DNA of 64,000 nt, from NCBI GenBank assembly GCA_028717245.1, contig JAQUOD010000002.1:140772-204771 (forward strand). The letters run 5' to 3'. Position numbers and translations under genes: made by a program. Shown here piece after piece: positions 3-63,000 of this stretch. The DNA is from Candidatus Omnitrophota bacterium (GTDB taxonomy: Bacteria > Omnitrophota > Gorgyraeia > Gygaellales > Profunditerraquicolaceae). How positions within the stretch are numbered: the first letter of the stretch is position 1; every line of letters starts with the position of its first letter. The notes under the pieces were generated by a model. The model searched no databases, was not told where the DNA came from, and worked only from the letters and a program-made list of their open reading frames with translations.

Positions 3-3000
3 AGGGGTATAAGGCTTGAAGAAGATTACCTGGCGGTATTATCTGAATTACATAAGTTACATTTCAGCGATTTTGATACCCAACTTTTTACTGTAGAAGG
101 AAAGCATTATCAGGCGCACGAGAAACTCGGCGCGCATGTCGTTAAGACAGGAGACTGCGCCATAGGTACTTATTTTGCGGTATGGGCTCCTAATGCCCTG
201 GAAGTTTCAGTGATAGGTGATTTTAATAAATGGAACCCAACATCAAATTATATGTACCGGGTGAATTCAAACGGTATATGGGCGCTGTTTATCCCGGGGG
301 TCAAAGAAGGCGATCTCTATAAGTTTTCCGTCAAAGGGTGTGACGAGGTAATCCGTAAAAAGATTGACCCTTATGCGTTCTTTAATCAGTTTCCTACTAA
401 TGAACATCAACTTAGTAATGCATCGATTGTCGGGAGTTTGGGTTATTCTTGGAAGGATGATGCCTGGGTTAATGAGCGTTTATCTAATCAGGGGCCTGAT
501 AAGCCCATTTCCATTTATGAAGTCCATCTGGGTTCCTGGCAGCGCAAAAAAGAAGATAATAGTTGGTTGACTTATAGAGAGTTAGCAGAAAAGCTCGCAG
601 AATATGTTAAGGATATGGGATTTACTCATGTAGAGCTTCTCCCTGTCAGCGAACATCTCTTTTACGGTTCATGGGGATACCAGACAAGCGGCTGCTTTGC
701 TCCCAGTTCACGTTACGGCACGCCCCAGGATTTTATGTACCTGGTTGATTATCTCCATCAGAAGGGGATAGGCGTCATTATTGACTGGGTGCCGGCGCAC
801 TTTCCCAAAGATGAAGCTGGACTTGTAGCATTCGATGGCACAGAATTATATTCTCATAAAAATCCTTTAGAAGGGGAACATCCTGATTGGGGTACGCGGA
901 TATTTAATTATGGGCGTGCCGAGGTAAAGAGCTTCCTTATCAGCAATGCTCTTTTCTGGCTTAAAGAATACCATATTGACGGGTTACGGGTAGACGCGGT
1001 GGCATCAATGTTGTACCGCGATTATGGACGTAAAGAAGGAGAGTGGATTCCTAATAAAGATGGCGGGAGAGAGAATTTTGAGGTAGTAGCGTTCTTGAAA
1101 GAGCTCAACGAAGTAACCCATAGAGAGTGTCCGGCTATCCTGACCATTGCTGAAGAATCTACTGACTGGCAGGGAGTTTCGCGTCCCACAGATGGGGGAG
1201 GTTTAGGGTTTTCTCTGAAATGGGCAATGGGATGGATGCATGATACGTTAGAATATTTTAGACACGACCCTATACATAGACAGTACCATCAAAAAGAATT
1301 GACTTTTTATCCTTGGTATGCTTTTTCTGAGAATTTTACTTTAGTTTTATCTCACGATGAGGTAGTGCATGGTAAAGGCTCATTAATAGAAAAGATGCCC
1401 GGAGATTACTGGCAGAAATTTGCCAATTTGAGATTGCTCTTAGGCTTGATGTTTGCTATGCCCGGGAAAAAACTTTTATTTATGGGGGATGAGATTGGGC
1501 AACATAGAGAGTGGAACCATGACGGAAGCGTTGATTGGTATGTTCTCGATAAAAAAGACGAACATTCAAATATGCATAGAGGCGTACAGAATCTCGTAAA
1601 AGCCTTGAACCAATTATATCAAAGCGAACCGGCGCTTCACCAGCGTGATTTTGAATCTTCCGGTTTTGAATGGATTGATTTTAAGGATGCCAAACAAAGC
1701 GTAATCAGTTTTATCCGTAGAGGCAACAACCCTGACGAATCTGTTGTGGTAGTTTTCAATATGACTCCCGAGCCGCGATATAATTACCATATCGGCGTTC
1801 CTTGCGGAGGAGTTTGGCGCGAAGTTCTTAACAGCGATGCTAACGAGTATGGCGGTAGCGGTATGGGTAATCATGGGGTAGTAGATGCCACAAGTGAGCC
1901 GATGCACAATCGCCCCTATTCTTTAAATCTTACCTTGCCGCCCTTGGGAATGCTTATATTAAAAGTTAATAACCAAGCCTCCTCCGCCACTACAAAAGTA
2001 CAGGAGGATTCAAGAACTCCCCAGGATAGATTTAGAGAATTTTTAGGGACCAAACCAGAAGAATTTAATCTATGCGAGGCCTTAAAGCGATTTGGATTGA
2101 GTTTGGAAGAAGGAGTTGGTATTTTACAAAAGGTAAAATATGATTTTGGCGAGTATCTTGAAGTTTTGGACGAGAACGGAAAGTCAACCGGAAGAATGAA
2201 ACAGAGAGGCGCCATCCATGAGCAAGGCGATTGGCACAGGACAGCGCATATAATTATTATAAATAAGAAGGGTGAGGTTTTGCTTGGAGTTAGAGGCAAA
2301 AAAGCGCATAGTTCCCAGGGCAAGATTGATATATCCTGCGCCGGCCACGTTGCCATAGAAGACGGCAGGGATACTGCTTTTGAAGAAATCAAAGGCGAAT
2401 TAGTGATAGATAAAAATGAATTGTCCGAATTATCTGTTATCGGGCAGGAGAACGGATTCAAGAAGATAGGCGCTCTGCAACAGGAAGAAAAGATTGATGC
2501 CTGCGGGGTTTATTATTACCGGACAGCCGGGATAAATAAAGAATTTTCTACTCTTTATGTTGCCATAACAGATCTAACTGCCGATGAGATTAACGCGAGA
2601 TTACGCAAGCAAGGGGAAAATCGCGCGGTCGAAACAGTTTACTATGCCAATATAGAAAAAGAAGTTAAAGATCCAAACAAAGACTACAGTATCTATAGCA
2701 GCACTTTTAAGCAATATTTCTTAAATAGGGCAATATTGGATAAGATAATTGTTTTCACTAACGACGGCTCAGCGGACACCGCCTTAGAACAAGCTAAACA
2801 TAAGGCGTGGGGAATATATATTGAAATAAGAAAGCAAAATAAAGTTACATTCAAAGATGGCCGTGAATTCGAGGCTTTCGCCCATCAGATAGCCAATGAG
2901 GTGGGTGTAGAATTTGGATTAGATGCGAATCAGATAATAAAAGTTGCCCTTTTCTTAACTACTGCTTTCTTCCCGGGATGGGGCGGCCTGCCGGCACCAA

Positions 3001-27000: not shown

Positions 27001-30000
27001 TGCCAGGGCCGCAAAGAGGTGCTCGTAGCCTGTTCATCGGCTTAGCTTTTGTCGCGGGAGCGCTTCTTGATTATCTTGGGATCGGTCCGGTGCATTCGCT
27101 GCAAATCTATCGCGCCGGATTATTTACAGACCTAATTTCACTCGCGGCGCTCGTTGCCGGAATAGGGTTAATGATATATGCTATTTATGCGAAGATAGAC
27201 ATCGAGAATATAACCAGGCGCTCTTCCTCCAAATTTGGCCCACATCCTCTGCAGGAAGGCTTAAGGCCTTTATTCCAGAGGGTTGCTTGGGCAGATAAGT
27301 ATGCCCCGGCTGGTTTTAAGATTAAAGATATCTACGTCTTTAAAGTGCAAAAACACGGCATGGCCCCTACTCCGGCTATCTCATTTGGGATGGTTTTAGA
27401 GAATGGCGTAGTCTTAGAGCAGGCAGGGGTAATGGGAGGGATATCCAAAGGAAAATCCGAACCTGAAACCCACCCCAGCATTGATCAGGCAATTGAATTC
27501 TTCAATAAAAATGTCAGAAAGCATTTTATCGGGCTAAACGTCAGCCAGCCTGATGAGATCACCGATAAGATCATTGACTTAGATGAGCAATTCCGGACCC
27601 AAGCCGAAAACAAAGATAAACCCCGCTTCTCTTATATTGGCGCTGAGCTATCAGTAGGCATCTCCATGATTTGCTCAATTGCCTTTGCCGAAAGATTAGG
27701 CGTACCTTTAGAGATTATCACCAACTACCGTTATAACAAGTTCTGTTTAACTAAAGGCTATTCTAAAGAGCTTCGTCCCATGACTATCCCCGTAAACTAC
27801 TCTGTGGTCTGGGAAGGGGGTAAGCATGGCGTAGCCAGGCCATTAAAGGAGTTAGTGGAGCAGGGCATTATCAAGGATGCCTCAGAATTCCCGGATAAAA
27901 ACATAAATTTAGCCATGATCCCGCCGCAGGAAGTGCAGGTTATGGCCTTTACTCCTACCTGGCAAGAGGCAAGAGAGATCGCTATCCGGCTTACCGAGAA
28001 ATTCCAAGCCCTCTTAAAGAAAAAAGGGATTGAGATTAAGTATAAGTATGGCGCTGAATCCGGCTGCACTACTGAGCAGACCTATACCCAGGATGGCCGG
28101 CTGATTACCTTAGAGTTAATCCTGGATATCCTGGATGAGGCACGTAAGGCATTAGGGGCTGATGCCAAGTATGTCCGGTATGCCTTGGATATTGCCTCCT
28201 CTGAGATGTATATCTCCAAGATTGATAAATATTATATTGGCCCATCTTCTGCCGGCAATGAGAGCGGCTTAGTGACCAATGAAGAGTTCACCCAGTATAA
28301 ATTAAAACTCTTTAAGCGCTATCCTTTTATCTCTGTAGAGGACTGGGCTGATGAATCTAAATTAGAACACTGGCTCTCCGGCAAGGCGATTATGCCTTCC
28401 ATGATCCAGATAGGCGATGATAATGTCGTCTCCCGCGCAGACTTAATCTTAAAATTCAAAGACGTGATTAATGCCCATCTACAAAAACCCAATCAATCCG
28501 CAGAAGAATTGGCCATGATTCTGGCTGTAGCCACCAGCCATAAACTGGGTAATGTCGTGGTCTTTTCTCACCGCAGCACCCGGCCTGAACTGGAGACCTA
28601 CACCGCGCAGACAGCTATGGGTATGGGCGCTTTTGGAGGCAAATGGACTCTCTGGGGCGCTGGCCGGGGAGGCCTGATTGCCGCTACTAACCAGGCTGAT
28701 GAACTCTATAACCAAGGCCCTTACAAAAATGTAAAGCTTCCTTATCAGGGCGGGCTGGCCTTAGACCCAAATGGCCCGTATAAAGATTATGGTTGGGCTA
28801 AGAGGGTGAGAGAAGAGATTGCAGACCAAGAGTTACAGTTTAGGAACGAGCAGGGTAAGAGCAATTATCCTCTGGACTTAAGGAGAGAGGCCCCGGCCTT
28901 ATTTGAGCTGGCAAGAAGATTCCGCCTGCCTATTTACTCTAAGCTAGATGAGACAATTTACGTCTGGGATGCGGATGGTGTAGAGAGCGCCCTTCAGGCA
29001 AGATATGCCCAGGGTCAGAATGACCAGGCAATGATCTCTATTATTACTATCGGCCAAGACGGCATGCCTAAGTCAAGATTAGATAAGGGGGGGGCGGTAT
29101 TAAATATTAATTTTAGAAAAGACAGGCAGATACAATGGGTCTCCGCTATAGTTGACCCTAATTTTAATGCCTTCAAAGTTACGCCTCAGGCAAAAGATAT
29201 AAGTATCACCGGCACGGTCCAGTATGTCCCTGAGCTGGCGCAAGAGAGGGCTATTTTAGCTGATACCATAGTAGAAAATAGTTTAGCGCAAGTCTTAAGC
29301 CGGGAAGGTATTCATACCGTATATTTGTTTGATGCGGAAAAGAGCGTTTTTAGGGCTGTGGTTAAAGGCGGTAGAGAAGAACTCTTTAAAAATGAGGATA
29401 TAGAATATGCTTCCATCTCCATGCCGGTACTGATGAACCTTGAGCAGATAGGAAAATACAAGCCTGATGAATATAAGCAATTGGATAAAGATAAATATGT
29501 GGCTTGGTTTTATGGCCCGCTGCCTCAAACTGAAGAGTTAAAACAAATACAAAATAGAGACTACCGCATGTATCCGGCATTAAGCATGTTCGTTTTAGCC
29601 AGGGCAAATATAAGAAAGATTCAGACTGCCCGGCCCGGGACGCACGGTTTTACCAATTTATCCGCGCTGGATTTAATCGGCCACGTAGCCAAAGAGGACA
29701 TAAAGAAGATCACCAAACTCTTTGTAGAAAGGCCCGACGGCACATTTGAAATCAAAGAAGGAGACGGCTGGGCCTGTATAATGGAGTGCCTGAAGGTCGG
29801 CGATACCTGCGTAAAGATGATACTAGAGGCAGTAGAGCAAAAAGAAGGGGTGCTCATTCTCTACGGCGACCACGGCTCTGTAGACGATACCAGCCAGCCA
29901 GGCCATAGCTTTAATAATGTGCCGATATTTATTATTGATTTTAAGAATAAACAGGTCAAATTAGTCAGGCATAAAGGTAACCGAGAAGATACCCAGGCAG

Positions 30001-33000
30001 ACATTGCCGTAACTGTCTTGCACATTTTAGGGATAGCCAAGCCCGAGGAGATGACCGGCAAGAGCCTCCTACCGGATGATTATGTGGGCGCTAAAGAGAG
30101 GATTGTCTGGGAGGTCCTCTTAGACGGCTTTGGCCACACTGATTTTGCTGATCCAAAAAATGCCTTTGGCCCGGCAATCAAGCAGGGCATCATACCTACG
30201 ATTAAAGGATTATATGACCAAGATAACTACGCTATCCTTAAGGCCGCAGGTTGGTATGCCGGATTAAGAGGCGGCAGACAGGAAGATTTTAGGCCCGAGG
30301 AGATAAAGAACAGGGAGACGATGTTAAAAGGGGTGGCCCAGGCTGCTGAAAGTCTTAAGCTCCCCATAAAGATTATTTATTATGATTACCGTAACATCCC
30401 TGAGGCAACTAAAGCCTACGATTATCAGGCAGGTATAAAAGAGCTTCGGGAGAGCCCGTTCTTAAATGACAAAGATTTTGTCGTCAAGACGCTGGATAAT
30501 GAAGTTAATGTCCTTTGCCTTGACCCGGCGCAAATGGGCTCCACTGAATATAATACCTGGACTATAGGCGCAGGCCGCATTGTCAAGCAGTCCATTGTCG
30601 TCTTGGATGAGCAATTTATTAGCGGGGAAATCTGGGGAAATCCGGCCTTAAAAAATTATCTTGCCTTGGCTAAGAAACAAGGCTATGCCCACATGGTAGG
30701 CTTATTGCAAGAAGCCGGGGTGCATGCCTCAGCCACTCAGCTTTACTATCAAAATAAAAATTTCAAGAAAAATGGCATAGAGAGTCTTATGTTTGACTTA
30801 GGCAGTGACGGAAGAGACGAAGGGCCGAGGGATTGCCTAGGTCGCGTGCGCCAGCTTAGGGGAGCGCTTAAATATTTTGGCATAACAGATTATACAATCA
30901 ATATCCGCGGCAGAGAGATATGTTTTGACCGGGCTAAGAATTGGAAATTGACCGTAGCCTTTATTAACGAGCTTGTATTTGGCAGCCGGCTTGAAAAAAG
31001 AGCGCTGCAATCCGAGGAGCATAGAAAAGACAATCCCGGCTTTATCAAAGGCATAGCTTTATTAAATATGCTCTTAGTATTATTCGGGCTGGGGATTGTA
31101 GTTTCGTTATTGTTAGGTGTTTTTAAAAATGACATGCCTGTCCTTGCTGGATTGCCTCAGGGGTTTTTAAACTGGTTTGTACCAATGAGTGGGGTTGGTA
31201 TCAGCGCATTGATATTCTTGGTGGGGGTGTTAAGGGGTAGTCAATTCTTTGACAGCAGAACCTTAGAAAAAGTTATTCGCAAGCTCTTTGATATTGCTAT
31301 TGGGAAAACTGCGGGAGATAAAGAATATGCCGGGGGACTTTTAAAACAAATAGCAGAGAAAGTTGATAGTGATGATGTATCGCTGGGAGTGCGGCAAATA
31401 GCTGTTGGTTTGTCAACGCTGGAAGGCCTGGTTAATAATAATCCCCCGGATAATAAAAAAATAGGCTCCATTCTTAATATTGTTAATAACAGATTTACTG
31501 AAGGGGTAGAGGTCATATTAGATAACGAGAAATTATTAAAGATATTGATTCAAGCAATGAGCAGAGACAAAGAGATAAGCTATCAGATAGACTATGTATT
31601 GTCTTTTGAATTAGGCCTGGGAGAGAAGCTACGTGATAAAATCAGGCAAGCCACAACTTCTTCCGACCTCGAATTAAAGGAATGCGCCCAAAAACTGTGG
31701 GAGGAATTTGTAGAAGATACCAACAAAATCATAGATACAGATTTAAAAAGAGGCCGGAATTGGCAAGGCGCCATGGACACGTATTTGGGGACGGCTAATG
31801 ACGAAGGCTCAAAATTTTTATTAAAGAGGTTATTAGAGCCCAAAGAAGATCTTCTTGTGCAAATATACTCATATTTATGGCAGGTCAAAAGATTTAAAAT
31901 ATTTCATCAACATCTTTTGCAAGCTATGCATTCATCGGACGAAGAATTAATTAAGCTGGCTAAGAGTGTATTTGATTCTTTTAGTGAAATGATTACTAAA
32001 GATATAAGAGTAGAGGTAGAGATAGATATGAGAGATTACTACATTGATGCCATTAAGATATATCTTGATTTTCCCAATGGCCCTTCTTTAGATTATCTAA
32101 AGAAAATGTTCAACCAAAACACAACATATAAATTGGGAATACGTAATGCTATTATGAGTATATTATTGAGTAGCGAAGACGCAGATTTGCAGGCAGAAGC
32201 AAAAAAGTTATATTATGAACTTTTCCCAGAACCCGACACAAACAGCGACCACAACCTGCGCCTTGATACGCAGCGCCTGGCTGGCCGCATTTTAGAGGTT
32301 GTTCAAAAAAATAATATTTTCTTAAAGGTATATAATGAAGCCTACAAAAATAATTTAGAATATATTCAGGAACTCCATGGCAACAGGGGCCCGCCAACCA
32401 AAGTAGAGAAACGCTTTGCCCGCACTAACCCCATTGCCCGCGGCCTTACCCCCGATGGAGATATTAACTGGCTCATCTCCGCTAAATTCAGAAAGTTCTC
32501 GCCCAAAGTGCTCGCCTCCATTAAAGAACACGAATCCGGACGCACGGAACTACAAGGTTTAATCAGGCAGTATAATCAATCCCGGCAGAAAAAAATTTCT
32601 CCTATAACGAAAGCCTTTTCTAAAGTATTTAATCCGCAAAGCCTAATTATCTCATCATCCGTTATTTTTATCTTAGCTTGTTTAGGTATAATAATCGGCA
32701 AACTTAATGCTATGGGATTATTTGTTATCTCAATATTAATGGTGGGGATGGTTACGACAGCCCCCTTGATGCCTTCCCGCGATTGGATGGAATGTTCCCG
32801 GCAAATTGAAGCATGGGTAGGTATCAATACCGCTGAAACTAGAAGTTTGATTATATCCATGTTCAATGACCCTGACCGTACGGTAAGATTAGCGGCAGTT
32901 AACGCCTTTAATAAAATTAAAGACGAGCGGGCTGGCTTTGGGTTGTGTCAAATTATAAAAGACACCGATGAATATTTTCAAGTGAGGGCAGCGGCTATAT

Positions 33001-42000: not shown

Positions 42001-45000
42001 GTTTTTCTTCTAAGGAGTTTGATTTTTACACTAATCCTGTATTCTTAGAGAAAATTGACAATATACTCATAGAAAATCTGGTGAGATTTGAAGCAATCGG
42101 CGAAGATTTCTATACAAGGGAGATGCTCGATATAAAAAATAGAGATATTCCTGGTTATCAGATACCCATTTTACCAGAAATTTTAGAGCAGCTTAAGGCA
42201 GGCGGTTATGATATTGACGATGAAAATAATGGGGAAAATAATAGTGGCAAGTCCACTTTTAGTGACGGCAACGCTATGTGTATTCTTCTTCCTATTTTAG
42301 CAGGGCTGGGTGCGGGTGGCGTTGTGGGGGCTGCGGTTTTTGCAGTTTCCTCGTGGGTAATGCCGGTAATTCTAGTTGGAATTGCTGCTTTAGCTATAAC
42401 ATGGATATTTGGTCACAAAAATGAGGAGAATAACAACCTTCTTATACTTTTTAGCCTTCCTATAATTTCACTTTTGCTTTTATATTTAACCGGGCATATT
42501 CTTAGTAATCACCTAGATTTACAGGTTTTTATTACTCCTTTTGCCTCCGGAGCGCCCATATTATTAAGTTTGGCCTTGCCCATTATTCTACCCGAAGATA
42601 ATAATAAGGAGAATACCCTGAAGCGCCAAATCCTTACTTTAGCGGCTCAAGGATACGGGAATAAAAAGATTGCCCAAGAAATAGGGTTATCTGCGGTAGA
42701 AGTAAATAAGGCAATGCATGCTTGGTATTTAGAATATAATATTCCCAGCAGAAAGAAGGAAAATCGGAAAAAATTAGTTTTAGCGGTAAAGAAGGCAGGT
42801 GAATTATCAGACGACTTGGAATTTAACCCGCTTACTCAACGTGAGACCCTGGTATTAAAACTTGTTGCTCAAGGTAAATCTAATCAGGGAATCTCCGAGG
42901 TCCTAACTATTTCCAAAACAGCTGTGCACGGGCATATATCATGTATTTATAGCGCATTACGCAAAATAGGCTTTGATGCCAGAGGCCAGTTTAAGCGGCT
43001 ACTGATGGTAAAGTTCGCCCAAGACAAAGGGTTTATTCCCCCCGGTATAGACATTACCAAATTAATAATAGATAGCTACGGTAAACGTAAAGTTCGTGTT
43101 GTTGAGTTAATTGCTGAAGGTAAGAACTATAAGGAGATCAGTATTAAACTAACAATGCCGATAGGCCAAGTGAGAAGCGAGGTATCGAAGCTATACCAAC
43201 TATCTGGTGTTCGCGGCCCATTAGAGCTGGTAGAATGGGCAATAAAAGAAGGAATAATCTCTTCCCAGAAGTATAACCTGGAAGCTATTAAGCGTAAATT
43301 TAGGAATCCCCTTAAGCCGCGAGAAATAGACACATTGAATCTAATGGCTCAAGGTAAAACTAACTCCGAGATTGCCGAAGGTTTACAGATTGGCCTTGCT
43401 ACAATTGAAGATTATGTAGGCACTATTTTTGGTAAACTCAAAGTCGATGGCAAATCCCCTGATGCCCGGCTCATAGCTGTAAGAAAGGCTATGCAAAAAG
43501 GCTTCATTACTTTACAGGACACGTTTGAATTAGAAATAGGATTAAAGAACCCTTTAACAAATCGGGAAATGGAAGTGTTAATTTCGGCTGCCGACGGCCT
43601 TTCAGAGGAAGAGATTTCTGAAAAGATCGGAATCCAGAAGCGTAAGGTGCGCGAATACCTAAAGAGTGCAAGGCGCGCATTAGGTTTAACAGACGAAACC
43701 CCCAATCTTAGGGTAATTGCGATAATCCTATTCTTAGCTATCAGTAATCCGGGATTAAAACCGCAGGAGATAACACAATTCCTGATTACAGGCCAGCCAA
43801 AATTGAGTTTAGGAAGAATTTGGTTTACCAAGCCCGAAGTGCAATTATATACTTTTGAAGGCCGAAGAGTTATGCTCCGTATTCCAAAGGAGGCTGTTAA
43901 TAAGGATGTCAATCTGGAATTATTTAAATTTAACGGAGATTTCCGGGGTTTCTTAATCCGGGAATTAAACAAAGGCAAACCCGGAAAGCTTTTAGATAGC
44001 TGTGTCTTATTCAAAGGGGCATTCCTGAAGACACCCGAGCGAATCCCTACTGTTTTACTCGGTAAGTTTCAAGAAGCTCAATTGATTGCTTTTGACTACA
44101 GAGAATTACTAAAAAAGCTGCAGGCTATTCAGAAAATCCCCTATCCTGAACGGGATAATATCGCAGAGATTTTGTTTTATGCCGGGAAGCTGTATCCGCG
44201 AGAGATGGCAGAGCGCCTTAGTATGTTAGAAAAAAAAGTCGATCCAGCTAAAAGGTATAGCCCCGGGGTAAACAGGATACTTAAGCAACTCAGCGAAAGT
44301 GTTAAAACAGAGCTATTTGCAATAGATTCAGAACAGATTCGTCAGGCTTTGAAGGCTTATGCTAGCGGCGTAAAATCTACTAAAGATGAGCAATTAGTAT
44401 ACTTATTATTTAAAGCTGTAAATAGCAATGATAATGTTGTAACTCTTGCCAGGACCATTAAGAGAATTATTCGAAAGGATAGAGATTTTCGGCAAGAATT
44501 CGCTCAATTTACATGCAGAAAAGGATTAGACAATCCTAACGTCCGCAGGTTATTAAGTTTGATATATCCAGAAAATTCTTTGCTTGGGGTTAAGAATGGG
44601 TTTAAATCCTGCGGCAATGCGTTAGGAGTCGGCACTATTTTTTGCCTGGCTTTTGCTATCCTGGGTTCAGCCCTGCTTGTTTTACATTCCCTGCCTGCCG
44701 CAGAGGCAGGCATGGCTGGCGGGGGGCAAATATTTAAATGTATTGCCGGGGCTTCTACCTTGGGTCTTATATTGTCAGTTGATGGGGACACGGGATGGGC
44801 CTATAGCGGGGCCAGATGGCTTGAGGGCACACTCGAAAAGAGGCTCGGAATCAAATATTCATCCGGGCTCAGAAAAATAGGGGAGTGCCTTAGGCGTTGG
44901 AAAGATAATACTTTATCTCTTGAAGAATCAGAGCTGCTTATAGAGTTTTACGAAATATTTAAGCAAGATATGCAATCCCTCACTGGAATTACTGAAAACG

Positions 45001-51000: not shown

Positions 51001-54000
51001 ATAAGATACTCAATCCCGCCTTAAGGTTTCTTAACGCCAAGAAAAAAGCCGAAGCAATTTCTTTAATGGGATCCGTTAAGAAGAAAGCCAAACTTTCGGT
51101 AATCCTACAAACGATATTAGCTGAATACCGCAAGAGGTTAACCGATATTCTACTGGACAGAGAAATTTCCGCAGAGGAGAGAGATGTTTTATTAAAGGAG
51201 GTATTTTCGGCGGTTCTCGAAGATATTCGTTCTTCTGGCAAGGAGTTATCTGAAGAAGGAGTTGCTATATTATGGGCAAGGGCATATCAGGCCGTAAATA
51301 TAGCTCCTCGGGTTCCTGGCGCCAGGAATAGAACCGAGAAAGTAACTAACAAAACCTTTGAAGCTGCCCAAAGATATATCCGCCTCTTAGGGCTCCTGGG
51401 AGATGATTCTATAGAAGAAATCCTTAAGAAAGGATGGATTTATAAGCCAGAGTTTAAAAATATGAGAGTATTTTTAAAAAGAGTGCAGATACAGATAAAG
51501 GAAAGAATGAAAATAAGTCCCGAGACCGCGGCAGAGGTTAGTTTGAGAATACGCTTGATACCAGATGATTTCTTGTGTTTAGCTGAAATATTAGCCAAAG
51601 AAAAAGAACTTAAGCTTGATGTTGAGCAAATGGAGCTACTTAGGGGTTGTGTTTGGGTTGATACAAATTGTCCTTCCAAAAATACCGGCACTCATACGGG
51701 CGCAGAAAGGGCTTTTAAGTCTGACCCTAAGGAGAGTTTACCGGAATCATATTCAAGCCGTAGCACACACGCACATTTTCCGCAGGATCCTCTTGACAGC
51801 CCCTTTACTTATAGCAGAGGTGCACATTATTTTACCGGAAGTATAGTTGGCAGTGCAGGCGTTATGGTTGACTCTACTAACAACATAGGGAGTCCCCAAG
51901 GTGAATTTGATCTCGCGATAAAAAAGGCAGGCTTGTCTAAGACAGCCAAGGGTAGGTTTAAGCCTGTATTGTTTATAACGAGAAAAAGGCATAGGCTTAT
52001 CTTTTATCAGAAAGGGCAGAGGCTCCCTATCCAGGATATTATTGTTTTATTTAGAGGTTGCCGGGCTAAAGAAGGCAATAATAGGTCATTCGGCTGGAAA
52101 AATATTAAAGAGAATATTCGGGCGCGTTGGGAGAAAAAAGGAAAGGCGATATTCGGCGCTAAATTCTCAGGCAGCCAGCTCATAAATGAGCAAGAGGTCC
52201 TGGAGAAGATCGCTAAGACATTGGAAGCGGGTGAACAGATCAGGGAGAATTTCTCAGAAGAGAGGGCATGCACCCATTATATATTAAAGGACGCAGAAGA
52301 GGGGAAGTTATATGATGTTATTACCGGTACTTTAGGCGATGTGGTAAGAATTGACGAACTTCGGATTGACTACTATCCAGCGTATATTTTCTATATTCAG
52401 TCCGGTATTGGTGATTTCTGGTTAGCCAAGTATTTAATAGGTATCCTTCAAGAAGGCAAATTAAAGATTGGCCCAAAATATTATCCCCGTCCAGGTTACC
52501 AAAGAATAAGAGTTAATGACTTGGCCCGAGGCAAGGCGCTCAAAGGCGTAAAGATAGAGAGAAAAATCTTCTTTGAAAAAGCAAAGGGACTAATATACAT
52601 CATAGATGCAAAAGAAGGCGATTGTTTAGTAGTTGACGTAAAGGGGCATTACTATGCTTATTGGTACAGGATAAAAACCGGGGATTTTATAGACAGAGAC
52701 GAATATTTGGAGATAACAGAAATTGTTAATTCCGGCGCAACGCAGCGCCAAAATACCGGCACTCATTTTGGCGACGAGGAGACTTATGACCCTGATTTCA
52801 GGCCGTTTATTATTAAGGGTAAGAGGATGAATTTCGATGAAGCGCATAAGGCATTTGTTAAACAATATATACACAGCCCGGATACCTTAGTAATCAGGCT
52901 GCAAAACGGCATCTTAACGCAAATCAACCCTAACGCTCCGCCTCAGGAAATACCCGCAATAATTAGCAAACCCATTCTAAAACTAGAAAAACCCCTCGTT
53001 TCCGGTAGATTGATTCGTTTCTGTATATTTCAAGGAAAAGCCAAAGACTACATATACGGGATTAATCCCTATTCTTTATTAGATGCGCAAGGCAGGGCAG
53101 TCTACGCCGAGGCAGGAAGCGGAGGCAAAAATGAAATAGGCCAATACCACAATATCATTTCTATATACCTCAGCCGGGAACTCTTCATGATTTTATCTAC
53201 TGAAGCCATGGTGGAAAGGCTTTCTGAAGAGCTAAGACACGCCATAAAAAAGGTTGAGCAGAATAACCATACTCAGGAGAAATTTGATAATGACCCGGGG
53301 AGGCAAAAGAAATTAGACTCTATACAGTCTCGAATGAAAGGCATAGGCCCGATTTCGCCTTTCTCAAGGGAAGAATTAATCAAGAGAATGGAAATCACAC
53401 CTACAAAATCAGATAGGTTGTATGATTTGCGAAAGTATAGCACAGCCGTAGATTATTTAAGGAGAGATGAAGAGCAAATCAGAGGTTTCTTAAAAGCTAA
53501 ACATTCATTAGAACCCTGCACTTTGGCAGGGATTATTCAGGCGTTATCTTCAGATTTCGCCATCATTCAGAATGAGGCGGAATTAGAAGAGGCAATCAAG
53601 AGGCTTATTTTAAAAGGTAATCAGATAAGCTGGGTTGAAGGCAAAAGAGTAATCTGGAATGAGCCTTATGGCCAGCCTGTCAGCGCTAAAGAGAAAGCTA
53701 AGAAAAATTCAGCGGATGAAAGTACAGGAAGTGACGTAGAACCTAAAATACCAAAAAAGAGCTACGTTTTTGAAATAGGAGAGAAGGGGGCTATTACCCT
53801 ATCTTTACCTGGTGCAAGGGAAAGGGTAACTTTCTCATCCCAAGAAAGAGCCATATTAATTGCTTACGGATATACTGATGGAGAATTAATGAACGAAACC
53901 GATATTAATAACTCTAACTGGGTTAAATCCTACATAGGAAGTATTATTAGTAAAATAGAGGCGATCGCTGAGTTGAAATTCAAAGCGCCAAAAGGAGATA

Positions 54001-57000
54001 TACCAGGTGCATTAAAGGAAGCAAGGCGCCTCTATCGTGAAACAATAGAGGGCGACTTAATAAATGAAGGATATCCAGAGCCCATCGCTATTGTGGCAGC
54101 CAGGGAGAAGAGCCCGCGGGGATTAGCAGAAAGCCTGAAAAGCCAGATGCAAAGGGAGTCAACGCCTTACGGCGTGATTTTAGATAAGGCGCCTCAACAG
54201 GCAAAGGGTGCCTTGCGCGAATTTTTACTCGCGTTCTTAGAGAATAAGAATCCTGACTACATCCAATTTTTTGAAGGTTTGACAAAAACAGCCACTCCTA
54301 AAGCTATGACTGATGAGGTACGCAAAATTTATTCGACCGATTCGGAAATATTGAAAGAGTTTTTAGAAAAAGAAACCACAGGCCAATTTAGAGAATTAGT
54401 TAAAAATGTTGTTCGCCCGAATCTTCCTCAAGGGTTAATTTCATTAGTCCTGATACTCTTTCTTTCTGTAAGCCTCTTCTTTAGCGCTTGCAAGCCAGTC
54501 GGCCCACCAGCAGTTTCTAATAATCCTACCTCAACGCCTCCTGTTGTATCTACGCCCAACGAGCCGGAAATATCTTTAACTGATGCCCAGGAATGCAATA
54601 GTAAAGGTGTTGATTTGGTTGAGGCCAGAGATTATAAGAATGCAAAGAGATATTTTGAGAAGGCCATTGAACTCGACCCTAATTTTGCCGAGGCATACGC
54701 AAATATAGGAACGCTCTACGGTGAATCAACGGAATATGAGATGGCTATTGAATATCTCAATAAAGCAGTTTATCTGGATCCTAATTCAGCCGTTGCCTAC
54801 GCAAACTTGGGCAAGGCCTGGCTAAACTTAGCGAAATTTCCGGGAGATGTCAATCATGCGGTAAAATATCTTACCAGGGCCATAGAATTAGACCCTCGAT
54901 ATAAGGATGCCTATTACGATTTAGCTATTGCTTATAGGATAATAAAAGATTATGACCGGGCAGAGGGAGTTTTGCTTAAGTTAATTGAGAATAGGCCCGA
55001 TGATGCCAATGCCTACAAGAATTTGGGCGCGGTATATGTTAAGAAAGGCGATTTTCAGCGTATCGAAGTAGGCGATTTTATTCAGGCAGTAGAAGATTAT
55101 AAAAAGGCAATAGAGTATTTCCAGAAGGCAGCGGACCTCGATCCAAATTTACGGGATATTGTAGAATATAATATCAAGCAAATTAGGGAATCGATAAATT
55201 TAATGTGCCCCCAGGCGCATAATCCGATAGACTCATTACCGCTTGCCTTGATGGCGGCTGGCGTTGTTCCTCTGGGAGTAAGAGGAGGGAAAAAGAAAAG
55301 AAAAGAAAAAATCATTGGCGAGAGAGAAGAAAGATTCTTTGTTTTTCAAGGCGAACTTAGCAGATTTATCCGAATAAGCGCCGAGAAATTTAAGGCGATA
55401 ATCTTGGAATTACAGCCATATAAGCCACTGGTTGAAGAACAAAGAAAAGAAATCGGGGAATTCTTAGAAGCCTTAGGAGAAATTGGCAGTTTAAGAGAAG
55501 ATTATTTGATGGAGGAAGATTATCCTTATATCTGCGATGGTTATGCGAAGAGAATGGTAGGGATTCTAAGAAGATACGGGCTGAGTGCTGAAGAGGAAGC
55601 CCGGCAATGGCCGGAATTAAAGCCGATTATGGAAGAGTTTGTAAAGAAGTTTGGAGAAAAGATTGAAGTTTATTCTGAACACCATTTTGTCCGGTGCAGA
55701 ATTGCCGGGTACGATTTCATTCTTGATATTACTGCTGACCAGTTTGAAATAAGAGACCTGACAGGTAGATACCAGCAATTAGGCATTGTGGTTTTGCCAT
55801 CGGTCATTGCTCAGAGAAATCCTGCAAGATTCTGGATGTATAATTGCAAGTTATCTGAATCATTTGCCGAAGTTCTTGAAAAAGACAGGCCGATTATGCT
55901 TGAAGCGTTTTGTGATATCCTAAGAGTCCTTAACGAAGGGGCAAAAGCGAGGTTATCTACAATTTTGTGGCCTGCAGTTAGAGCTTCAATTAATAAATTA
56001 AATCAGAGGGAATTACCCAATGAAAAGGAAATTTTTCCGAACCAAGTTAGAGAATATCCAGGTGACCCATGGGGCATCCTGCCTAATAAAGGCTCGACAG
56101 CGGATTTCTTGAAGGATTTATGGAAATTTAGAGATATCCTGAAAGATTATCCGATAATTCCTGCTCAGCGGGGTCAAATAGAAATTGCCAATAGCGAAAC
56201 AATAATATGGAGGCGGTTGCATAAAACAAGAGGGGCTCCGCAAGGCTTGCCTTTTAGCCGCGAAACTTTAAGGCAAGAAATACTCGCCGCCCAAATATTA
56301 GGTTTTCTCGACGAAAACCATAAAATTACCCCTAAGCTCCTGAATCTCACCCATGAGCAGTTAAATGAAATCTGCAATATTCCCAAATTAACCCAGTCTC
56401 CTATTAGGGTAATCAACTTAAGGAGAAGGCCAAAAAGACTTCTGATAGAAATTGATTTCGCCATTTTTGGGTTTGGCAAGATAAATCCAAGAGTGAGGCA
56501 GTTAGCCATCCAAGTCATTGCCGCAGGAAAAGAGTTAAGCCGGATTACGGATGAGGAGGCCAGGCAGGATGTTGAGGATTTAGTTCGGCTTTATCAGGGG
56601 ATGAAAATAGATGAATTCCTGCAAAATAGTTTTGACAAATTATCTGCAGAAGAAAAATTGGCGTGGTTAAGAGCGCTTATAGAAAAGAGGAAAACAGAAA
56701 TAGAATCATTGGATTTTCGCAGGCTTGCATCTGGTGGGGTTGATTTGGCAATCTCTGCGTTATTCCGGGCCTATAGGGATAAGGAAGTGAAGGAGCCTGT
56801 AAAAGGGATGCTTAAAGATATTCTTTTTTATAAATGCAGGGGCCCGATTGAGCCAATTACTGCAAATAATGTTGCAATCTACCTTGAAGAATTATCTAAA
56901 ATGTATGAGATTTACCAGCCGTATAAAATCACGAAAGAGACGTTAAAAGGCACAGCCACAGTTTTGACGAGTTTCTTATTTTATTGGGGAGGCAATATTT

Positions 57001-60000
57001 ATGTCTTCAGCTACGAGAAGGACGGCGAGATAATGCATACTCTCATTGATTCAGGCGATAGGCAGCATAGGCCACGCATATTAAGATTATTGAGAGAAAA
57101 CGGAGTTGAGCCGGCCAATATTGAGAAGATTATTTTGACCCACCACCATTTCGACCATAGCGGTTTGGTTAATGTTCTCTGTTTGGTTTCTGGTGCGAGG
57201 GCCTTGGTTCATCCTAATTTTAAAGACATAGTTGAAGGCAGAATAGTTGATTATGAGGTTACGGCGAAAGCGGCAAGTAGGCTTAAGGTAGAATATTTGT
57301 TTTCCGCTGGCTACCAAAGAAATATAGGCGGGGTTGACTTCCCTGCTTTTAAGGCGGTTGATATCGGAGAAGGGGTAACTTTAGAGATAATCGGCCTTCC
57401 TAAAGCTGAATTGTTCCATACCCTTAACCAACTCTGCTGTATATTTACACCTAATGCCCCTTTTAAGCCCGCGGATGAGATGATTTTTTCCGGAGACCTC
57501 TGGTTGAAGGAGCCCCCGGGTATTCCAAAAAATATTTCATTTTATTCACCGCACATTTTTGAATGGATAAAAGAACTCAGGCGTGGCTTTGATTTTCGCC
57601 CGCAGGACCGAAGAGCAAAGGATGCGCTTAAGAAAGGTTTTAGCCTTATCGAAGTAAAGCCCGGCCACGGCGGACCATTTTTAGGCACTACAATAATCGG
57701 CACGCTGCTTGCCCGCCGCGACATCTTAGTAAAATTGGGTTTTGGCGAAAATGCGGATAAAGCCATATTGGATAAAGAAGATATGGTTCTCAAGATAAAG
57801 GAATTAAAAGAAAAGGCCTACCAGGGTTTTATTAAAGAATTAAAATTCTGGCAGAGGCCTCTTATAGAAACAGGATGGTCCGGTTATAGCGTTGAGGAGA
57901 TATCCGGCTTTTTACTGCGGGTATACCAGGAGCAAAGCGGCGGGGGAGAATTAGTCGGAGAAGACAGAAAGGAAAGGAGAATTGACCTTAAGGATAAATT
58001 ATGGAGATTAAAAAGCGATGAGCAGCAGCTAGTAGAGTTACGCCAAATAGCCGAATCCTCATTAGCAAAAATTGAGGGGCTATTAACGCCGCGCAAACCT
58101 GATTTTAAATCCGATGAGGTTGCAGAAGATTGTAATCCCTTTAATTCGCTGGGTGGTAGAGCACATACACACCATCCGGAAAATAGTTTGTTTCCTGACC
58201 CAGTTGGCTTTGACCGCTGGGGTAATCCTTCGCTGCGCTATCGGGATGGAGCAAGAAAAAGAGGGCCAAGGCAGGATGATATGGAGCCATGTCTTGAAGT
58301 AACAATTAGAATTGACGAGGAATTTCGAAAGAAGGCGCAGGAGATCCTTGGCGAGGGTTATAAGAGAAGGGCTAAGCAACCGCTTAACCTTAACCCCCCT
58401 GAATTAGAGATGCTCAGATTTATTATCGATGGCGACAAGGCCAAAACCAAAGAAATCCAGTCTAAATCAGATAGTTCTCTTTCAAGATACCTGAAAGGCA
58501 TATTGGAAGATTTGAGAACAAATAACCGTATCCACGCAGTAATATTAGGTATAGCTTTAGGCGCAACCGGAGCCGAGGAAATCAAGTTTTTCATTAAAAA
58601 AGAGCCTCAGCGGGAATTGACTAAGCATGAGCAAGAGATACTGATACTGATTGCCAGAGGATACAGCAGGAAAATGATAGCCGCTAAATTAGGTATCCGC
58701 CAGCATAGAGTTAAAATAGAAATTAGAAAAATATGCGATGATTTTGGTATTTATATTAAAGCAGACAGCTCTGCGTCGCAAATGCAAGCAGTATTAATTG
58801 CGCTCTGGAAGGGACTGTTTAAAGATAAGGATTTAATTAAAGAGATAGGCTCAGAAGAAAAACCGGAGCAGCCATCGGTGAATGAGCCGCAGTTGGAAGA
58901 GGAATTTAAAAGAAAAATCTCGCCTGAATTAGCCGAATCACTTTACGCACTGACAGGCAGGGGAAACAATATCTGGGAGGGCGCAATAAACAAATTGACG
59001 CACGGACAAGTTGTTCAATTAAACAAGATACTCAGTTCACCCGGCCTGGTTGATCCTTTATTAATTCATCTTTATTTAGTCAGCTATTTTAAAAGAAATC
59101 GCAATACTAACGATCAGGGCTTGGCATTAATATTATTGGAATATCTCGTTGATAATTTTAATAACGAAGAGGAATTATTAGGACAGGCCGGAGTAAATAA
59201 GGAATATTTCCAGCAACTAAAGAAGCTATCCCGGTTTGAGCAATGGTCAAGAATGATATGCGGCAGCGGTAAAAAGCGTTATAGCCTTGATGAAATCGCC
59301 ACCAGAAGCGGGGTGGATAAAGATTTTATTGAAGCCAATAAAGATATTATTCAAAGGCATATCTTATGGATGCAGAAGCTTGACTGGGTAGCTGCATGCA
59401 GAGAAAGGATCCAAGACGATGGTAAAGCCAAGGGATGGACTAAAGAGCAGCTGCGTCAAAAACTAGGGGTTCCTTATGATAGGGTTATAGGGTTGGCATG
59501 GACAGGGGGGATATGGGCCGTTAATGTGCGCAAGGCCGCTGACATATTTGAACGAGAAGCAGCTTTCTTTATGTACGGTGGCGCAGAAAATAACCTGCTG
59601 GAAAGGTTGCCCTTTAACAGGCGGATCGAGTTCTTTAGGTATAAGGAAGGCTGGAGCCAGGAAGAGCTCGCATCGCAATGCCGGGTTGCCACTATGGAAG
59701 TAAAGCGCTGGGAGAATGGCGTATTCATCCCTGCGCCTGAAATGATGTTGCGCTTAGCCGAGATATTCAACGTAGAAGTAAGCGAGCTTATGTATGGTTT
59801 AAAACATGCCGAAGCGCTGAAAGGATTACCTTTCTGCAAACAGATTGAATTGTTAAGGTATGAAAAGGGATGGACCCAGAAGGAGTTAGCGTTAAAGTGC
59901 GCAGTTGGCACTACGACCGTAAGATATTGGGAATATGGAATGAGTTCCCCTAATCTTCAGTACAGGCAAAGGTTAGTGAATATTTTAGGGGAAGAAATCA

Positions 60001-63000
60001 TCGATGGCGAAGAATTCAATAGCGACGGAACGCGTAAAATGCCCGATAAAGATACGGGGAGGGATGAGATTGAAGAAATCATTAAGTTAGGCGAGAAGGG
60101 GATAATCGCTTTACATAAAATGCTCAGGCCCGAAAGCAAAGGCGGTATCAGCCAAAATCAGGCAGGGCTTAGAAAATACATTTGGGAGAAGATAATCGCT
60201 TATTCTTTCGGGGGCGCGAAAAATATCCGTTTTATCAATAAAGATAAATTGCCTCGCGGTGCCGCATATGAGCGCTATAAAGGCTTAGGGCATATAGTTT
60301 TAAAAGGCCGCCTTCCGCCTCGTAGCGGCAGTTTAGACGCAGGGAGGCATTGGGTTGAATTTGAGGAATACGCGGATGTCGGCGCCGGAGCAGATTATTT
60401 ATTAGAAATGAACGACGGAATTCCGGTTAGGATATTCTTTTCTAAAGATTGCTCTGCCTTTGAGCTCTTACCTATTATTGACAATAAGGCAGGGCAGGTT
60501 ATCAGGGCCCACCGCGGAAAAATAATGAGGGTTGAATTCGCTAAATATGGATATGTCACTACATATACATACTCAACCCGCCTAGAAGGTCTCGTTGAAA
60601 TTGGCGGGGGCAGGCCGATGTATAACGGCCAGATGCCTAAGAAAAATAGGCCCTGGACAAAATTCAAGGATCATCCTGATGAAAAGATAAGGTTAACAGT
60701 CAAAGGAGGTTTAGTTGTAAGATGCACTTCCTTAGAATCAGATTTGGATGAAGAGTTCTTTTTAATCTGGCATAAACCAACGCAGCGTTATACGACTATC
60801 TTTACGCGGTCAAATGCGGACGAATTTAACCAATTAGGCCCGGATTACGAAGTTTATCGTAGTTTAAACAAGAATGGTTCTTTATATGCAGGGGCCGAAG
60901 AACCGGTAATGAAATTTAACCCCAAATACGCTTATAAAACGGCCAGAGCGTATGATATCCGTAATCCCACAGGTAAAAAGGCCTTTGTTGTAGGAGCAGA
61001 GGTGGTAGAAGGAGACAAGGTTTTAGCCAGAAAGAGCCTTCATTTGATTTATGAGGTCCCTGAGAATAGGCCCGAAAAATCTTTTGCCAAAGCAGATATA
61101 TTCGCTGCCTTTGAAAAGTGGAGTGAGGATAAATTATTACGTCCGGATGGAACAAAATTAGGCACTTATATTATTGCTGAGATTAAAACTGATAAGAAAG
61201 GTTTTTTAAGGGCAGATGGGTATTGGAGCGTGTTTAGCCATTATCCCGAGGCAGAAGTTGAGGCAAAGGTTATAAACGGGGACAAGTGTTTTGTAAAGTT
61301 TATCAAAGATAAACAAGGCAATCCTATTTTGAATATAGAAGGTAAACCATTAATTATAGATATCAGGCAGGATATAAAAAGTCAGATGAAAGGCATACGC
61401 ATTAAGCCCGTTATTGAGCCAGGAAAACAAATGCCGGATAAATCAGCGAAAAGAGAAGATACGCCGGAAGAGAAGGGAAGCCCATCGTCTGAAGAAGTGA
61501 AAATCCGGATGCAGAGGATCCCTGAGTTAAAAGCCTATCCAAGTCTGATGGTAAAATATGCATTACAAAGAGATGGGACTTCTGATGAGGTATTGTTAAA
61601 AATAATAAGGCTGCTTAATAGTATAAGGGGGGCCTTAATTAAAGAACAAGGCTGTGAGGAGCAGTTGGCTACTATATTGGCATGTTGTTGCGATGAAGAC
61701 CCCAAGAAAGCAATTGCAATGTTTATTAACGGGATTACTTTTGAAGAGGCGTATAAATTAGCCGAAACTAAAATTATGCCCGCTCTCGGTTCTGCAGGCG
61801 TAGGAACTGGCAGCCAATTAACGAGCCATAAAGTTGTGAGAGAAGAGCTTAAAGCCGGTAGGCCCCATAATCCTGCGCAACCAGTAGAGAGTAAGCCGGC
61901 CGCGAAAGAAGAGCCCAAAGTGCCTGTTTCTGGTAGCGTTGTTCAGTTAGAAGAAGAAAAAAGCTCGCCAAGGCAGCCAAAGATTGGTGATACGGTTAGC
62001 TACAATGGTTACGGCAGAGGAGTAGTTACCAGAATTGGAAATGATGAACAATACGGGCTCTCAGTCAGGGTTGAATTTGAGAATGTAAATGTAGGAGTAA
62101 AAAATTTAATCTGGGAAATTGCTGCAAGAAAAATTACCTTTGAACATACGGAGGTAAAAGCCGCGGATAACACAGGGAATGTAAGTAATGGCGGTAAAAT
62201 CCCTCCTGGGCCTCATCCGGCGAGTCCGTCAAGTGTGGCATCCCTGGAAAGATTGAAAGACGATATCGCGCGCATAAATGCCGCATACGCGCAAGGCACC
62301 GAAAAACCGGAAGAAGAGGAAGAGGAAATCGCCTTGCAGGAAGATGATGAGGATAATAAAGCGCCAAAAGATAAGCCAGTAGCTGATAAAACGCTAATCG
62401 AAGATTGCGTCCAATCTTTTTCTGAATTAACCGGCATCAAATCGGAAACATGGCGAAGAGCGATAGGATGGCTCACGCCCAAAGACATAACTGAATTAAA
62501 TAAAATTATGCTTGGCTCAGTTGTAGTTTTTGGCCATCTGAAGGTTTCTTTCTTACTTTTTCAATTCCTCCAGGACATAGAAAATGATGATTGGAGTTCG
62601 TGCCTCATGGCCTTACGTTATCTTGCTGTGGGGGCATTAAAGGAGGGGCTTATTGAAGAGGAAGACCGGCAGGATTTTGAAATGTTCAAGAAGCTATGCT
62701 TATGGGAAAAAAATGAGAAAATAATCAGCACAGAGAAAAGCAAAAGGTATACTACTACCCAAATTGCCCAGATGAGCGGGGTTAATGAAAATTATGTAAA
62801 CCGGTATAAGGACGCGGCCCGCAGGTTTATCTTGTGGATGCAGCGGATGGGTTTGGATAAGGTTTCCGGGATAACAGCAGGAACAGGGGCAGGATTAGCA
62901 TTATTATCTAAGAGTGAATTAGATGCATTAAAATTAGTTGCCCAAGGCTATGCTACTTTAGATATTGCAAGATCTTTAGGCTTAACGAAGAAAACTGTCC

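Follow-up and report, generated by a model that had tools for sequence, protein, structure and literature searches.

Giant proteins of Omnitrophota (class Gorgyraeia) have been described as 'Archaeovorin'-type proteins (West-Roberts et al. 2023, bioRxiv 10.1101/2023.11.21.568195) and under the class name 'multi-enzyme metabolic cluster', a class in which transmembrane (TM) helices recur at a roughly constant density (Nielsen & Lui 2026, bioRxiv 10.64898/2026.06.07.730766). The published giants possess numerous TM regions, count PPDK_N, HEAT_2, TPR (tetratricopeptide repeat) and HAD among their commonest domains, which are reported to be highly divergent, and in most full-length cases contain SecA_DEAD and/or C39 peptidase domains. 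Cleavage of their products is an open question in this literature, with no known cleavage points, and a signal-peptidase-II domain is present in one published giant. In the 2026 topology survey (bioRxiv 10.64898/2026.06.07.730766), internal signal-peptide calls were suppressed as chunking artefacts, and sites of this kind would therefore have been missed. The analysis presented here concerns a 64,000-base stretch of DNA, referred to throughout as the window, which is best explained as the inside of one such giant gene, and within it a segment (nucleotides 54,390-54,584) that is built like the N-terminus of a secreted lipoprotein and leads into TPRs. With moderate confidence, the segment is interpreted as an internal signal-anchor, derived from a lipoprotein-type N-terminus, which exports a tethered TPR loop of a continuous giant membrane protein. 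At present it is neither a separate gene nor equipped with a start site of its own.

Frame +3 of the + strand is free of stop codons from nucleotide 3 to nucleotide 63998 and runs past both ends of the window (0 stops in 21,332 codons, compared with 656-1,973 in each of the other five frames of the 64,000 bases). The first-pass annotation had stated that no in-frame stop lies upstream of the segment, and this proved true across the whole window. Each of the three stop codons occurs many times in the other frames, whereas frame +3 has none of them, so that the giant open reading frame (ORF) is no recoding or assembly artefact. Only three ORFs of at least 150 residues are contained entirely in the window, all on the minus strand. 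Pfam matches to enzymes along the frame comprise GlgB, ribulose-phosphate 3-epimerase (Rpe), PPDK_N with a phosphoenolpyruvate (PEP)-utilizer domain, peptidase M54, HD, enolase-like, iPGM-like, GNAT, CheR and other methyltransferases, HAD and metallo-beta-lactamase, and are accompanied by HEAT arrays, two TPR blocks, several GerE/LuxR helix-turn-helix (HTH) domains and one XRE HTH. More than 20 unrelated Pfam families are thus represented, none of them dominant, while the bulk of the ORF is orphan sequence. Hydrophobic TM-like segments number 23-26 by Kyte-Doolittle and uncharged-run criteria, or about one per 800-900 residues.

These properties place the ORF, with at least 21,332 codons against a criterion of 10,000 or more, alongside the published Omnitrophota giants. 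Common to both are many unrelated Pfam families (e.g. PPDK_N, HEAT_2, TPR, HAD, methyltransferases, GNAT, HD and sugar-metabolism enzymes), scattered TM helices and mostly orphan sequence, and the few homologues that carry source names are from Omnitrophota. SecA_DEAD, C39 and dockerin are not among the Pfam matches of the 64-kb slice, beyond which the ORF continues, so that SecA_DEAD and C39 may be encoded elsewhere in it. The best explanation of the window is therefore a position inside one gene of the Omnitrophota 'multi-enzyme' giant membrane protein kind, with a probable Omnitrophota source, and many TM helices are to be expected in it. Whereas the giant gene itself is of a known kind, internal lipoprotein-type signals are not described in the papers cited above, and the signal found here is a new variant.

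At the site of interest the frame +3 translation reads FRELVKNVVRPNLPQGLISLVLILFLSVSLFFSAC|KPVGPPAVSNNPTSTPPVVSTPNEPEISLTDAQE and then enters the TPRs; broken into its parts, the sequence from nucleotide 54,390 to 54,584 is RELVKNVVRPNLPQ - GLISLVLILFLSVSLFFSA - C - KPVGPPAVSNNPTSTPPVVSTPNEPEISLTD, with the TPRs next (all features of the segment lie on the + strand). The n-region-like stretch RELVKNVVRPNLPQ (residues 18130-18143, nucleotides 54390..54431) is basic, with R18130, K18134 and R18138 and a net charge of +2, and the 15 residues before the core are net +2, in agreement with the lipoprotein rule, which asks for one or more Lys or Arg ahead of the core. It is followed by the hydrophobic h-region or TM helix GLISLVLILFLSVSLFFSA (residues 18144-18162, nucleotides 54432..54488, Kyte-Doolittle 2.6-2.9), which ends in the lipobox-like F-S-A-C (nucleotides 54480..54491), Cys18163 being the TGC at 54,489-54,491. 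The tether KPVGPPAVSNNPTSTPPVVSTPNEPEISLTD (residues 18164-18194, nucleotides 54492..54584) is rich in Pro, Ser and Thr and predicted to be disordered, and precedes a TPR solenoid of about six repeats (residues 18195-18401, nucleotides 54585..55205, Pfam TPR E = 1e-17 to 1e-22). An AlphaFold2 model covering residues 18125-18470 (mean predicted local distance difference test score, pLDDT, 82.6) places a helix at residues 18143-18162 that stops right before the Cys, a disordered tether at 18163-18194 (pLDDT ~50), the solenoid at 18195-18401 with pLDDT >90, and a short helix at 18408-18418 of only moderate confidence. The claim of the first-pass annotation that the segment looks like the N-terminus of a secreted lipoprotein is borne out by this anatomy, which is unique in the window.

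Two features of the surroundings went unremarked in that first reading: the segment is one of the ~23-26 hydrophobic segments of the ORF, and behind its TPR module stand another hydrophobic helix and a polybasic cluster, which close it off. The second, short hydrophobic segment SLPLALMAAGVVPLGV (residues 18411-18426, nucleotides 55233..55280, Kyte-Doolittle 2.07) is a candidate out-to-in helix. Directly after it comes RGGKKKRKEK (nucleotides 55281..55310), with a net charge of +6 over 15 residues, one of just 13 clusters with a net charge of at least +6 in the 21,332 residues, which would act as a positive-inside stop-transfer signal. As the module is closed in this way, it reads as an exported loop of one continuous membrane protein. 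The downstream edge of this TM-TPR-TM cassette is marked by the next module (residues 18447-18599, nucleotides 55341..55799), a paralogue of residues 1818-1968 (27.6% identity over 170 residues, E = 1.6e-10, self-BLAST), and the cassette is flanked by 540 residues upstream and 530 residues downstream in which no Pfam domain was found.

The resemblance was assessed with a PROSITE PS51257-type lipobox pattern, {DERK}(6)-[LIVMFWSTAG](2)-[LIVMFYSTAGCQ]-[AGS]-C, placed at the end of a hydrophobic core, which LSVSLFFSAC fits. The pattern occurs twice in the 21,332 residues, and only Cys18163 terminates a hydrophobic segment, the other match (Cys10893) sitting in the middle of a TM helix. In the 30 residues after Cys18163 the proportion of Pro, Ser and Thr is 0.53, the maximum of the ORF (mean 0.13, 99th percentile 0.33), and no comparable tether follows any of the other 22 hydrophobic segments. 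By the same criteria, no internal site was found in ~169,000 residues of other retrieved proteins; nor did further large proteins, ~27,000 residues in total and among them the four that bear Omnitrophota names, contain an internal lipobox, although this sample is too small to generalise from. A rough composition-based estimate gives a probability of the order of 0.2-0.3 that one of ~23 helices ends in [AGS]-C by chance, and a rough joint probability of the order of 1e-3 once its coincidence with the most Pro/Ser/Thr-rich window among ~700 independent 30-mers is included, which argues that the lipoprotein-like anatomy is real. A segment with an internal twin-arginine or lipobox-type look was noted, by eye only, in P0130, a 1,089-residue metagenomic protein that shares an orphan domain with the ORF; this segment (SRRTFLATALLAFAGMLEGC, residues ~1005-1025) lies near the C-terminus and fails the PROSITE pattern, having Glu at -2.

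Comparators were obtained from a homology search with residues 18000-18450, which returned thousands of generic TPR proteins and was used only as a source of lipoproteins. An N-terminal lipobox was present in 17 of the best 120 TPR matches (~1/7, loose regular expression) and, by stricter criteria, in 14 of all retrieved proteins. In two of these 14 TPR lipoproteins, the metagenomic proteins P0044 and P0117, the layout is signal peptide, LAGC, Pro/Ser/Thr-rich tether and TPRs. A basic n-region, hydrophobic core, lipobox Cys, Pro/Ser/Thr tether and ~six TPRs are common to the segment and to free-standing TPR lipoproteins of this kind, whose signal peptides are of the Sec/signal peptidase II (SPII) type recognised by PS51257. 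BLASTP against P0044 gave a colinear alignment (32% identity over 235 residues) that begins in the signal-peptide core, crosses the tether and extends into the TPRs, with the Cys offset by one and NPTSTPP aligned to SPTSTPA in the tether; P0117 could be aligned from the TPRs onward only. Unlike a lipoprotein signal peptide, the segment is internal: over 18,000 residues separate it from the point where the frame enters the window, and no suitably placed start codon exists. Uncharged residues ahead of the Cys number 19 in a row (median 14, maximum 19 in the 14 free-standing TPR lipoproteins), which suffices for a permanent TM helix, and the residue at -3 is Phe.

Assignment of the solenoid to a specific TPR family was rejected, because the NCBIfam and Foldseek matches were generic only. 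The TPR part scored far below the cut-off of every named lipoprotein family in NCBIfam (PrsT 87.4 vs 312, PilW/PilF 57.5 vs 154, Tgl 49.1 vs 225, NlpI 33.8 vs 250, GltE 29.7 vs 225), and its best Foldseek matches were consensus-TPR designs, the OGT TPR domain and MamA. CcmI/CycH are inner-membrane proteins whose periplasmic TPR domain is held by flanking or N-terminal TM helices, and one or more TM helices followed by a periplasmic TPR domain would be common to them and to the present module. Membership of that family is not indicated, however, since the weak Pfam TPR_CcmH_CycH match (26.8 bits) falls under the 42-bit cut-off and the domain context is different, the module here being a loop in a giant polypeptide.

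Membrane orientation, loop topology and evolutionary origin of the segment would, in the interpretation favoured here, be as follows. The positively charged stretch and the 19-residue helix would insert with the N-terminal side in and the C-terminal side out, and the disordered Pro/Ser/Thr tether and the solenoid of about six TPRs (~250 residues together) would be carried to the outer face of the cytoplasmic membrane. The second, short hydrophobic helix and the KKKRK after it would then return the chain to the inside, so that just the ~250-residue tether-plus-TPR module would lie outside and the downstream metallo-beta-lactamase, XRE and GerE domains would be kept in the cytoplasm, the proper compartment for HTH domains. 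The distribution of charge agrees with such a path: the charge ahead of the first helix is +2, the 15 residues that come next to it on the far side amount to +1, the 15 after those (PPVVSTPNEPEISLT) contain two acidic and zero basic residues, and the second hydrophobic segment has -2 before and +6 after, a bias at both helices that supports an in-out-in hairpin. The best explanation for the appearance of the FSAC and tether would be that the N-terminal part of a TPR lipoprotein gene was either the ancestor of the segment or was captured, just as the GlgB unit at the upstream end of the window may represent a whole captured glgB.

Several points weigh against this interpretation. The second hydrophobic segment has just 16 residues, two of them Pro, and the confidence of its model is moderate; if it did not span the membrane, ~2,900 downstream residues, HTH domains among them, would lie outside the cell, which is implausible. 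TM predictions for Omnitrophota giants have been called unreliable in the literature, and an attempt to derive the global topology of the ORF from TM parity was dropped as unreliable on account of additional weak hydrophobic segments, the caveat being the same. The match to the signal and tether of P0044 is of low complexity, so that the architecture is the same and common descent is compatible with it but unproven. Finally, a lipobox Cys and a tether are superfluous in a plain TM anchor, and that both have been retained hints at a capture in recent times, or at lipidation or cleavage that really takes place.

The last of these is the main alternative, and it is judged doubtful. The segment would here be a functional internal lipoprotein signal, in which Lgt would add diacylglycerol at Cys18163 and Lsp (SPII) would cut between A18162 and C18163, splitting the precursor, in the manner of a polyprotein, into an upstream membrane-anchored part and a lipidated product consisting of Cys, tether and TPRs. 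A PS51257-type lipobox located exactly at the end of the helix, a Pro/Ser/Thr tether after the Cys as in two of the 14 free-standing TPR lipoproteins, and a combination that is unique in the window and absent from the ~169,000 control residues are all what such a signal would show, and the literature on the giants leaves room for it, given the open question of cleavage, the published giant with a signal-peptidase-II domain and the suppression of internal calls in the topology survey. However, a single such site in 21,332 residues provides no general processing scheme for the giant protein, the 19-residue h-region, longer than the median of 14 in the retrieved TPR lipoproteins, has the look of a stable TM helix, and Phe at -3 is non-canonical. 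Furthermore, neither an Lgt nor an Lsp domain is among the Pfam matches of the window, and a full-text literature search turned up no description, from bacteria, of an internal lipobox or of SPII-type processing at one.

It was also considered whether the resemblance might be accidental, the segment being an ordinary TM helix, one of many in a polytopic protein, that by coincidence has Ser-Ala-Cys at its end and a flexible linker behind it. The Omnitrophota giant class is one in which TM helices are to be expected, Pro-rich linkers after membrane anchors are common in proteins with periplasmic domains, and with ~23-26 hydrophobic segments to draw on, the rough estimate given above makes one [AGS]-C ending by chance far from exceptional. 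This reading is nevertheless rather unlikely, because the same site precedes the most Pro/Ser/Thr-rich window of the ORF (joint order 1e-3), because none of the control residues yielded a match, and because the alignment with a real lipoprotein N-terminus, that of P0044, is colinear.

A complete GlgB (1,4-alpha-glucan branching enzyme) unit occupies residues 22-658 (nucleotides 66..1976, + strand) as judged by profile hidden Markov model scores, alignments and catalytic motifs. The unit scored 937.9 bits against the NCBIfam equivalog NF003811 (cut-off 741), with residues 29-654 covering profile positions 5-618 of 619, and 874 against TIGR01515 (cut-off 464), and residues 22-658 covered positions 8-630 of 633 of PRK12313. 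Its closest counterparts are free-standing GlgBs, hundreds of which, at 630-660 residues, share 60-63% identity with it; in these alignments query residues 21-654 match subject residues 12-635 of 639. GH13 regions I-IV are all intact, namely DWVPAH (261), GLRVDAV (327), AEEST (383) and LVLSHD (447), and the unit is complete and catalytically intact. From these alignments the natural ends of the enzyme are located at about residues 3-10 and 658-666, the latter at nucleotides ~1,975-2,000 and in agreement with the coverage of NF003811. It had been claimed that GlgB ends at its natural C-terminus while the frame reads on, and this is correct: no stop follows after about residue 660, and no Met precedes residue 84, which lies within the CBM48 domain. 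In equivalog-level score, full-length coverage and the four GH13 catalytic regions, the unit matches a free-standing GlgB (GH13_9); in contrast to one, it has neither a start nor a stop codon of its own, and the giant frame continues through it on either side. Its conservation is also unusual when set against the highly divergent domains of the published Omnitrophota giants.

Other enzyme-like units are far less well preserved. The Rpe unit is full-length but scores 155-167 bits, the enolase-like unit (nucleotides 27954-28631) 80 (cut-off 300), the iPGM-like unit (30489-31055) 131 (cut-off 331), and the PEP-synthase-like unit (10200-13052) 103 (cut-off 598). A near-canonical GlgB beside such eroded units suggests that modules of very different age or constraint are combined in the one ORF.

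Counterparts of the junctions were sought in several libraries. A full HMMER scan of residues 17095-18194 against 1.84 billion representatives gave 10 distant matches, none of which extends to the helix, and all homologues of this region with source names belong to Candidatus Omnitrophota. The junction peptide had no match in GTDB genomes or JGI metagenomes, where alignment-based rescans returned nothing from the genomes and one unrelated ORF of 2,357 residues from the metagenomes; no external homologues were found for the downstream module (residues 18447-18599). A search with GlgB plus the 240 residues downstream of it found no protein that has the downstream part in common, the three longer top matches being unrelated proteins of high GC content in which GlgB is fused to another GH13 unit. 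Overall, no orthologue of either the lipoprotein or the GlgB junction, split or continuous, was found in the libraries of 1.84 billion representatives and 5.8 billion clusters, in GTDB genomes or in JGI metagenomes. The proposal of in-frame accretion gains support, as far as whole-gene-like modules are concerned, from the complete GlgB together with the lipoprotein-N-terminus architecture, and on the strength of the GlgB unit and the P0044-like segment, the giant ORF is made, at least in part, of such modules, in line with the published multi-enzyme class of Omnitrophota giants. The loss of stop codons between neighbouring genes, put forward in the first-pass annotation as part of this growth, is a candidate mechanism.

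Accretion in its neutral form is improbable. In that reading the segment would be a pure fossil, the scar left where a TPR lipoprotein gene and the gene upstream of it recently lost the stop codon that separated them, and its helix would have no present role. Such a history would account for the lipoprotein N-terminus anatomy, and GlgB exemplifies how a whole gene can end up in frame. Against it, the junction shows no remnant of a start codon or ribosome-binding site, of a promoter or terminator, or of a spacer or stop. The nearest in-frame ATG upstream (M18102) does exist, as reported in the first-pass annotation, but occupies 54306..54308 on the + strand rather than starting at 54,307, and stands 61 codons before the Cys and 32 before 'KNVV' instead of about 55; the 32 codons from M18102 to KNVV look like ordinary coding sequence. 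Promoter-like sites in the 52-57 kb region are not enriched (14 vs 10.7 +/- 3.1 in shuffled sequence). A terminator-like hairpin at 54,162-54,175 (+ strand, 5-bp stem and T-rich tail, ~130 nucleotides upstream of the internal ATG) was noted, which is probably due to chance, since terminator-like sites in the same region are fewer than the shuffle expectation (4 vs 5.5). In addition, the intact helix is paired with a downstream hydrophobic segment and a polybasic cluster, as would be expected of a working membrane loop, and in a cytoplasmic protein a hydrophobic signal that is not integrated would presumably be deleterious.

Internal translation initiation at ATG 54,306 or TTG 54,351, the sole later in-frame start-type codon before the Cys, which had been raised as a way of still obtaining a separate TPR lipoprotein from the giant mRNA, is highly improbable and has nothing further in its favour than the existence of the upstream ATG, as the Cys would be residue 62 or residue 47 of the product, outside the range of 15-35 in the lipoprotein rule, neither codon is preceded by a Shine-Dalgarno-like motif, and promoter-like sites show no excess. 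Across the ORF, such motifs precede 19 of 346 in-frame ATGs (5.5%), compared with 9.6% of in-frame positions, a depletion (binomial p = 0.004) that agrees with selection to avoid spurious starts of translation inside so long an mRNA. Met makes up just 1.6% of the residues of the ORF.

Several further features of the ORF were observed. Upstream of the cassette, an orphan conserved domain of ~200 residues (residues 17575-17785, nucleotides 52725-53357) has the signature GTHxG...FDxxH...LTQINPxAPP...YxEAGxGG...E..H. About nine homologues of it were found among the 1.84 billion representatives, mostly in large proteins, and the named ones are all from Candidatus Omnitrophota; its invariant His and Glu hint at a candidate metal site. 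Internal paralogous pairs link nucleotides 5454-5906 (residues 1818-1968) with 55341-55799 (residues 18447-18599), nucleotides 24606-25622 (residues 8202-8540) with 25824-26936 (residues 8608-8978), and nucleotides 58926-59381 (residues 19642-19793) with 62403-62849 (residues 20801-20949). HEAT arrays at nucleotides 16965-18686 (residues 5655-6228) also count among the internal paralogous segments, which indicate that internal duplication adds to the growth of the ORF beside the capture of foreign modules.

Three to four TM helices are clustered at nucleotides 42273-42591 (residues 14091-14197), and a LuxR/GerE-type HTH (KRQILTLAAQGYGNKKIAQEI) comes directly after this cluster, from nucleotide 42594 (residue 14198) on. 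GerE HTHs recur at residues ~14277, ~14445 and ~20967, as putative membrane-tethered DNA-binding modules in the giant protein. A candidate intramembrane zincin at residue 12097, in a TM cluster, was dropped because its 'HEIIGH' is HExxxH and not HExxH. Almost all 2-kb windows of the + strand are rich in purines, which is what one long coding strand should show; GC skew is positive in every 2-kb window except 18,001-20,000 (-0.010), and AT skew is positive, or no more than 0.002 from zero, in all of them. No Rfam families were found in the 64-kb window.

A parallel for a signal in the middle of a precursor comes from eukaryotic viruses. In pestivirus polyproteins and bunyavirus glycoprotein precursors, mid-precursor signal-like hydrophobic segments are reported to drive the translocation of the next domain and to be cut by signal peptidase I or signal peptide peptidase at the eukaryotic endoplasmic reticulum, whereas the segment described here has an SPII-type lipobox and is a cleavage candidate only. 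Should the FSAC site work, for which the sequence leaves a slim but real chance, Omnitrophota giants would be at least partly membrane-inserted polyproteins from which pieces are freed at internal signal peptides. If true, this would provide the first concrete cleavage point for the giant class and a mode of processing known from eukaryotic-virus polyproteins and not from bacteria. Whether the giants act as one chain or as cut pieces is an explicit question of the literature on them, to which the site contributes a sequence-defined candidate that is testable by standard tools, and it reveals a blind spot of the published survey in which internal signal-peptide calls were discarded as artefacts. 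Even if the chain is uncut, the segment shows a way in which a TPR binding module may be exposed outside while the enzymes and DNA-binding domains stay inside. Together with the intact, in-frame GlgB, it indicates that giant genes take in whole-gene-like units, signal peptide included.

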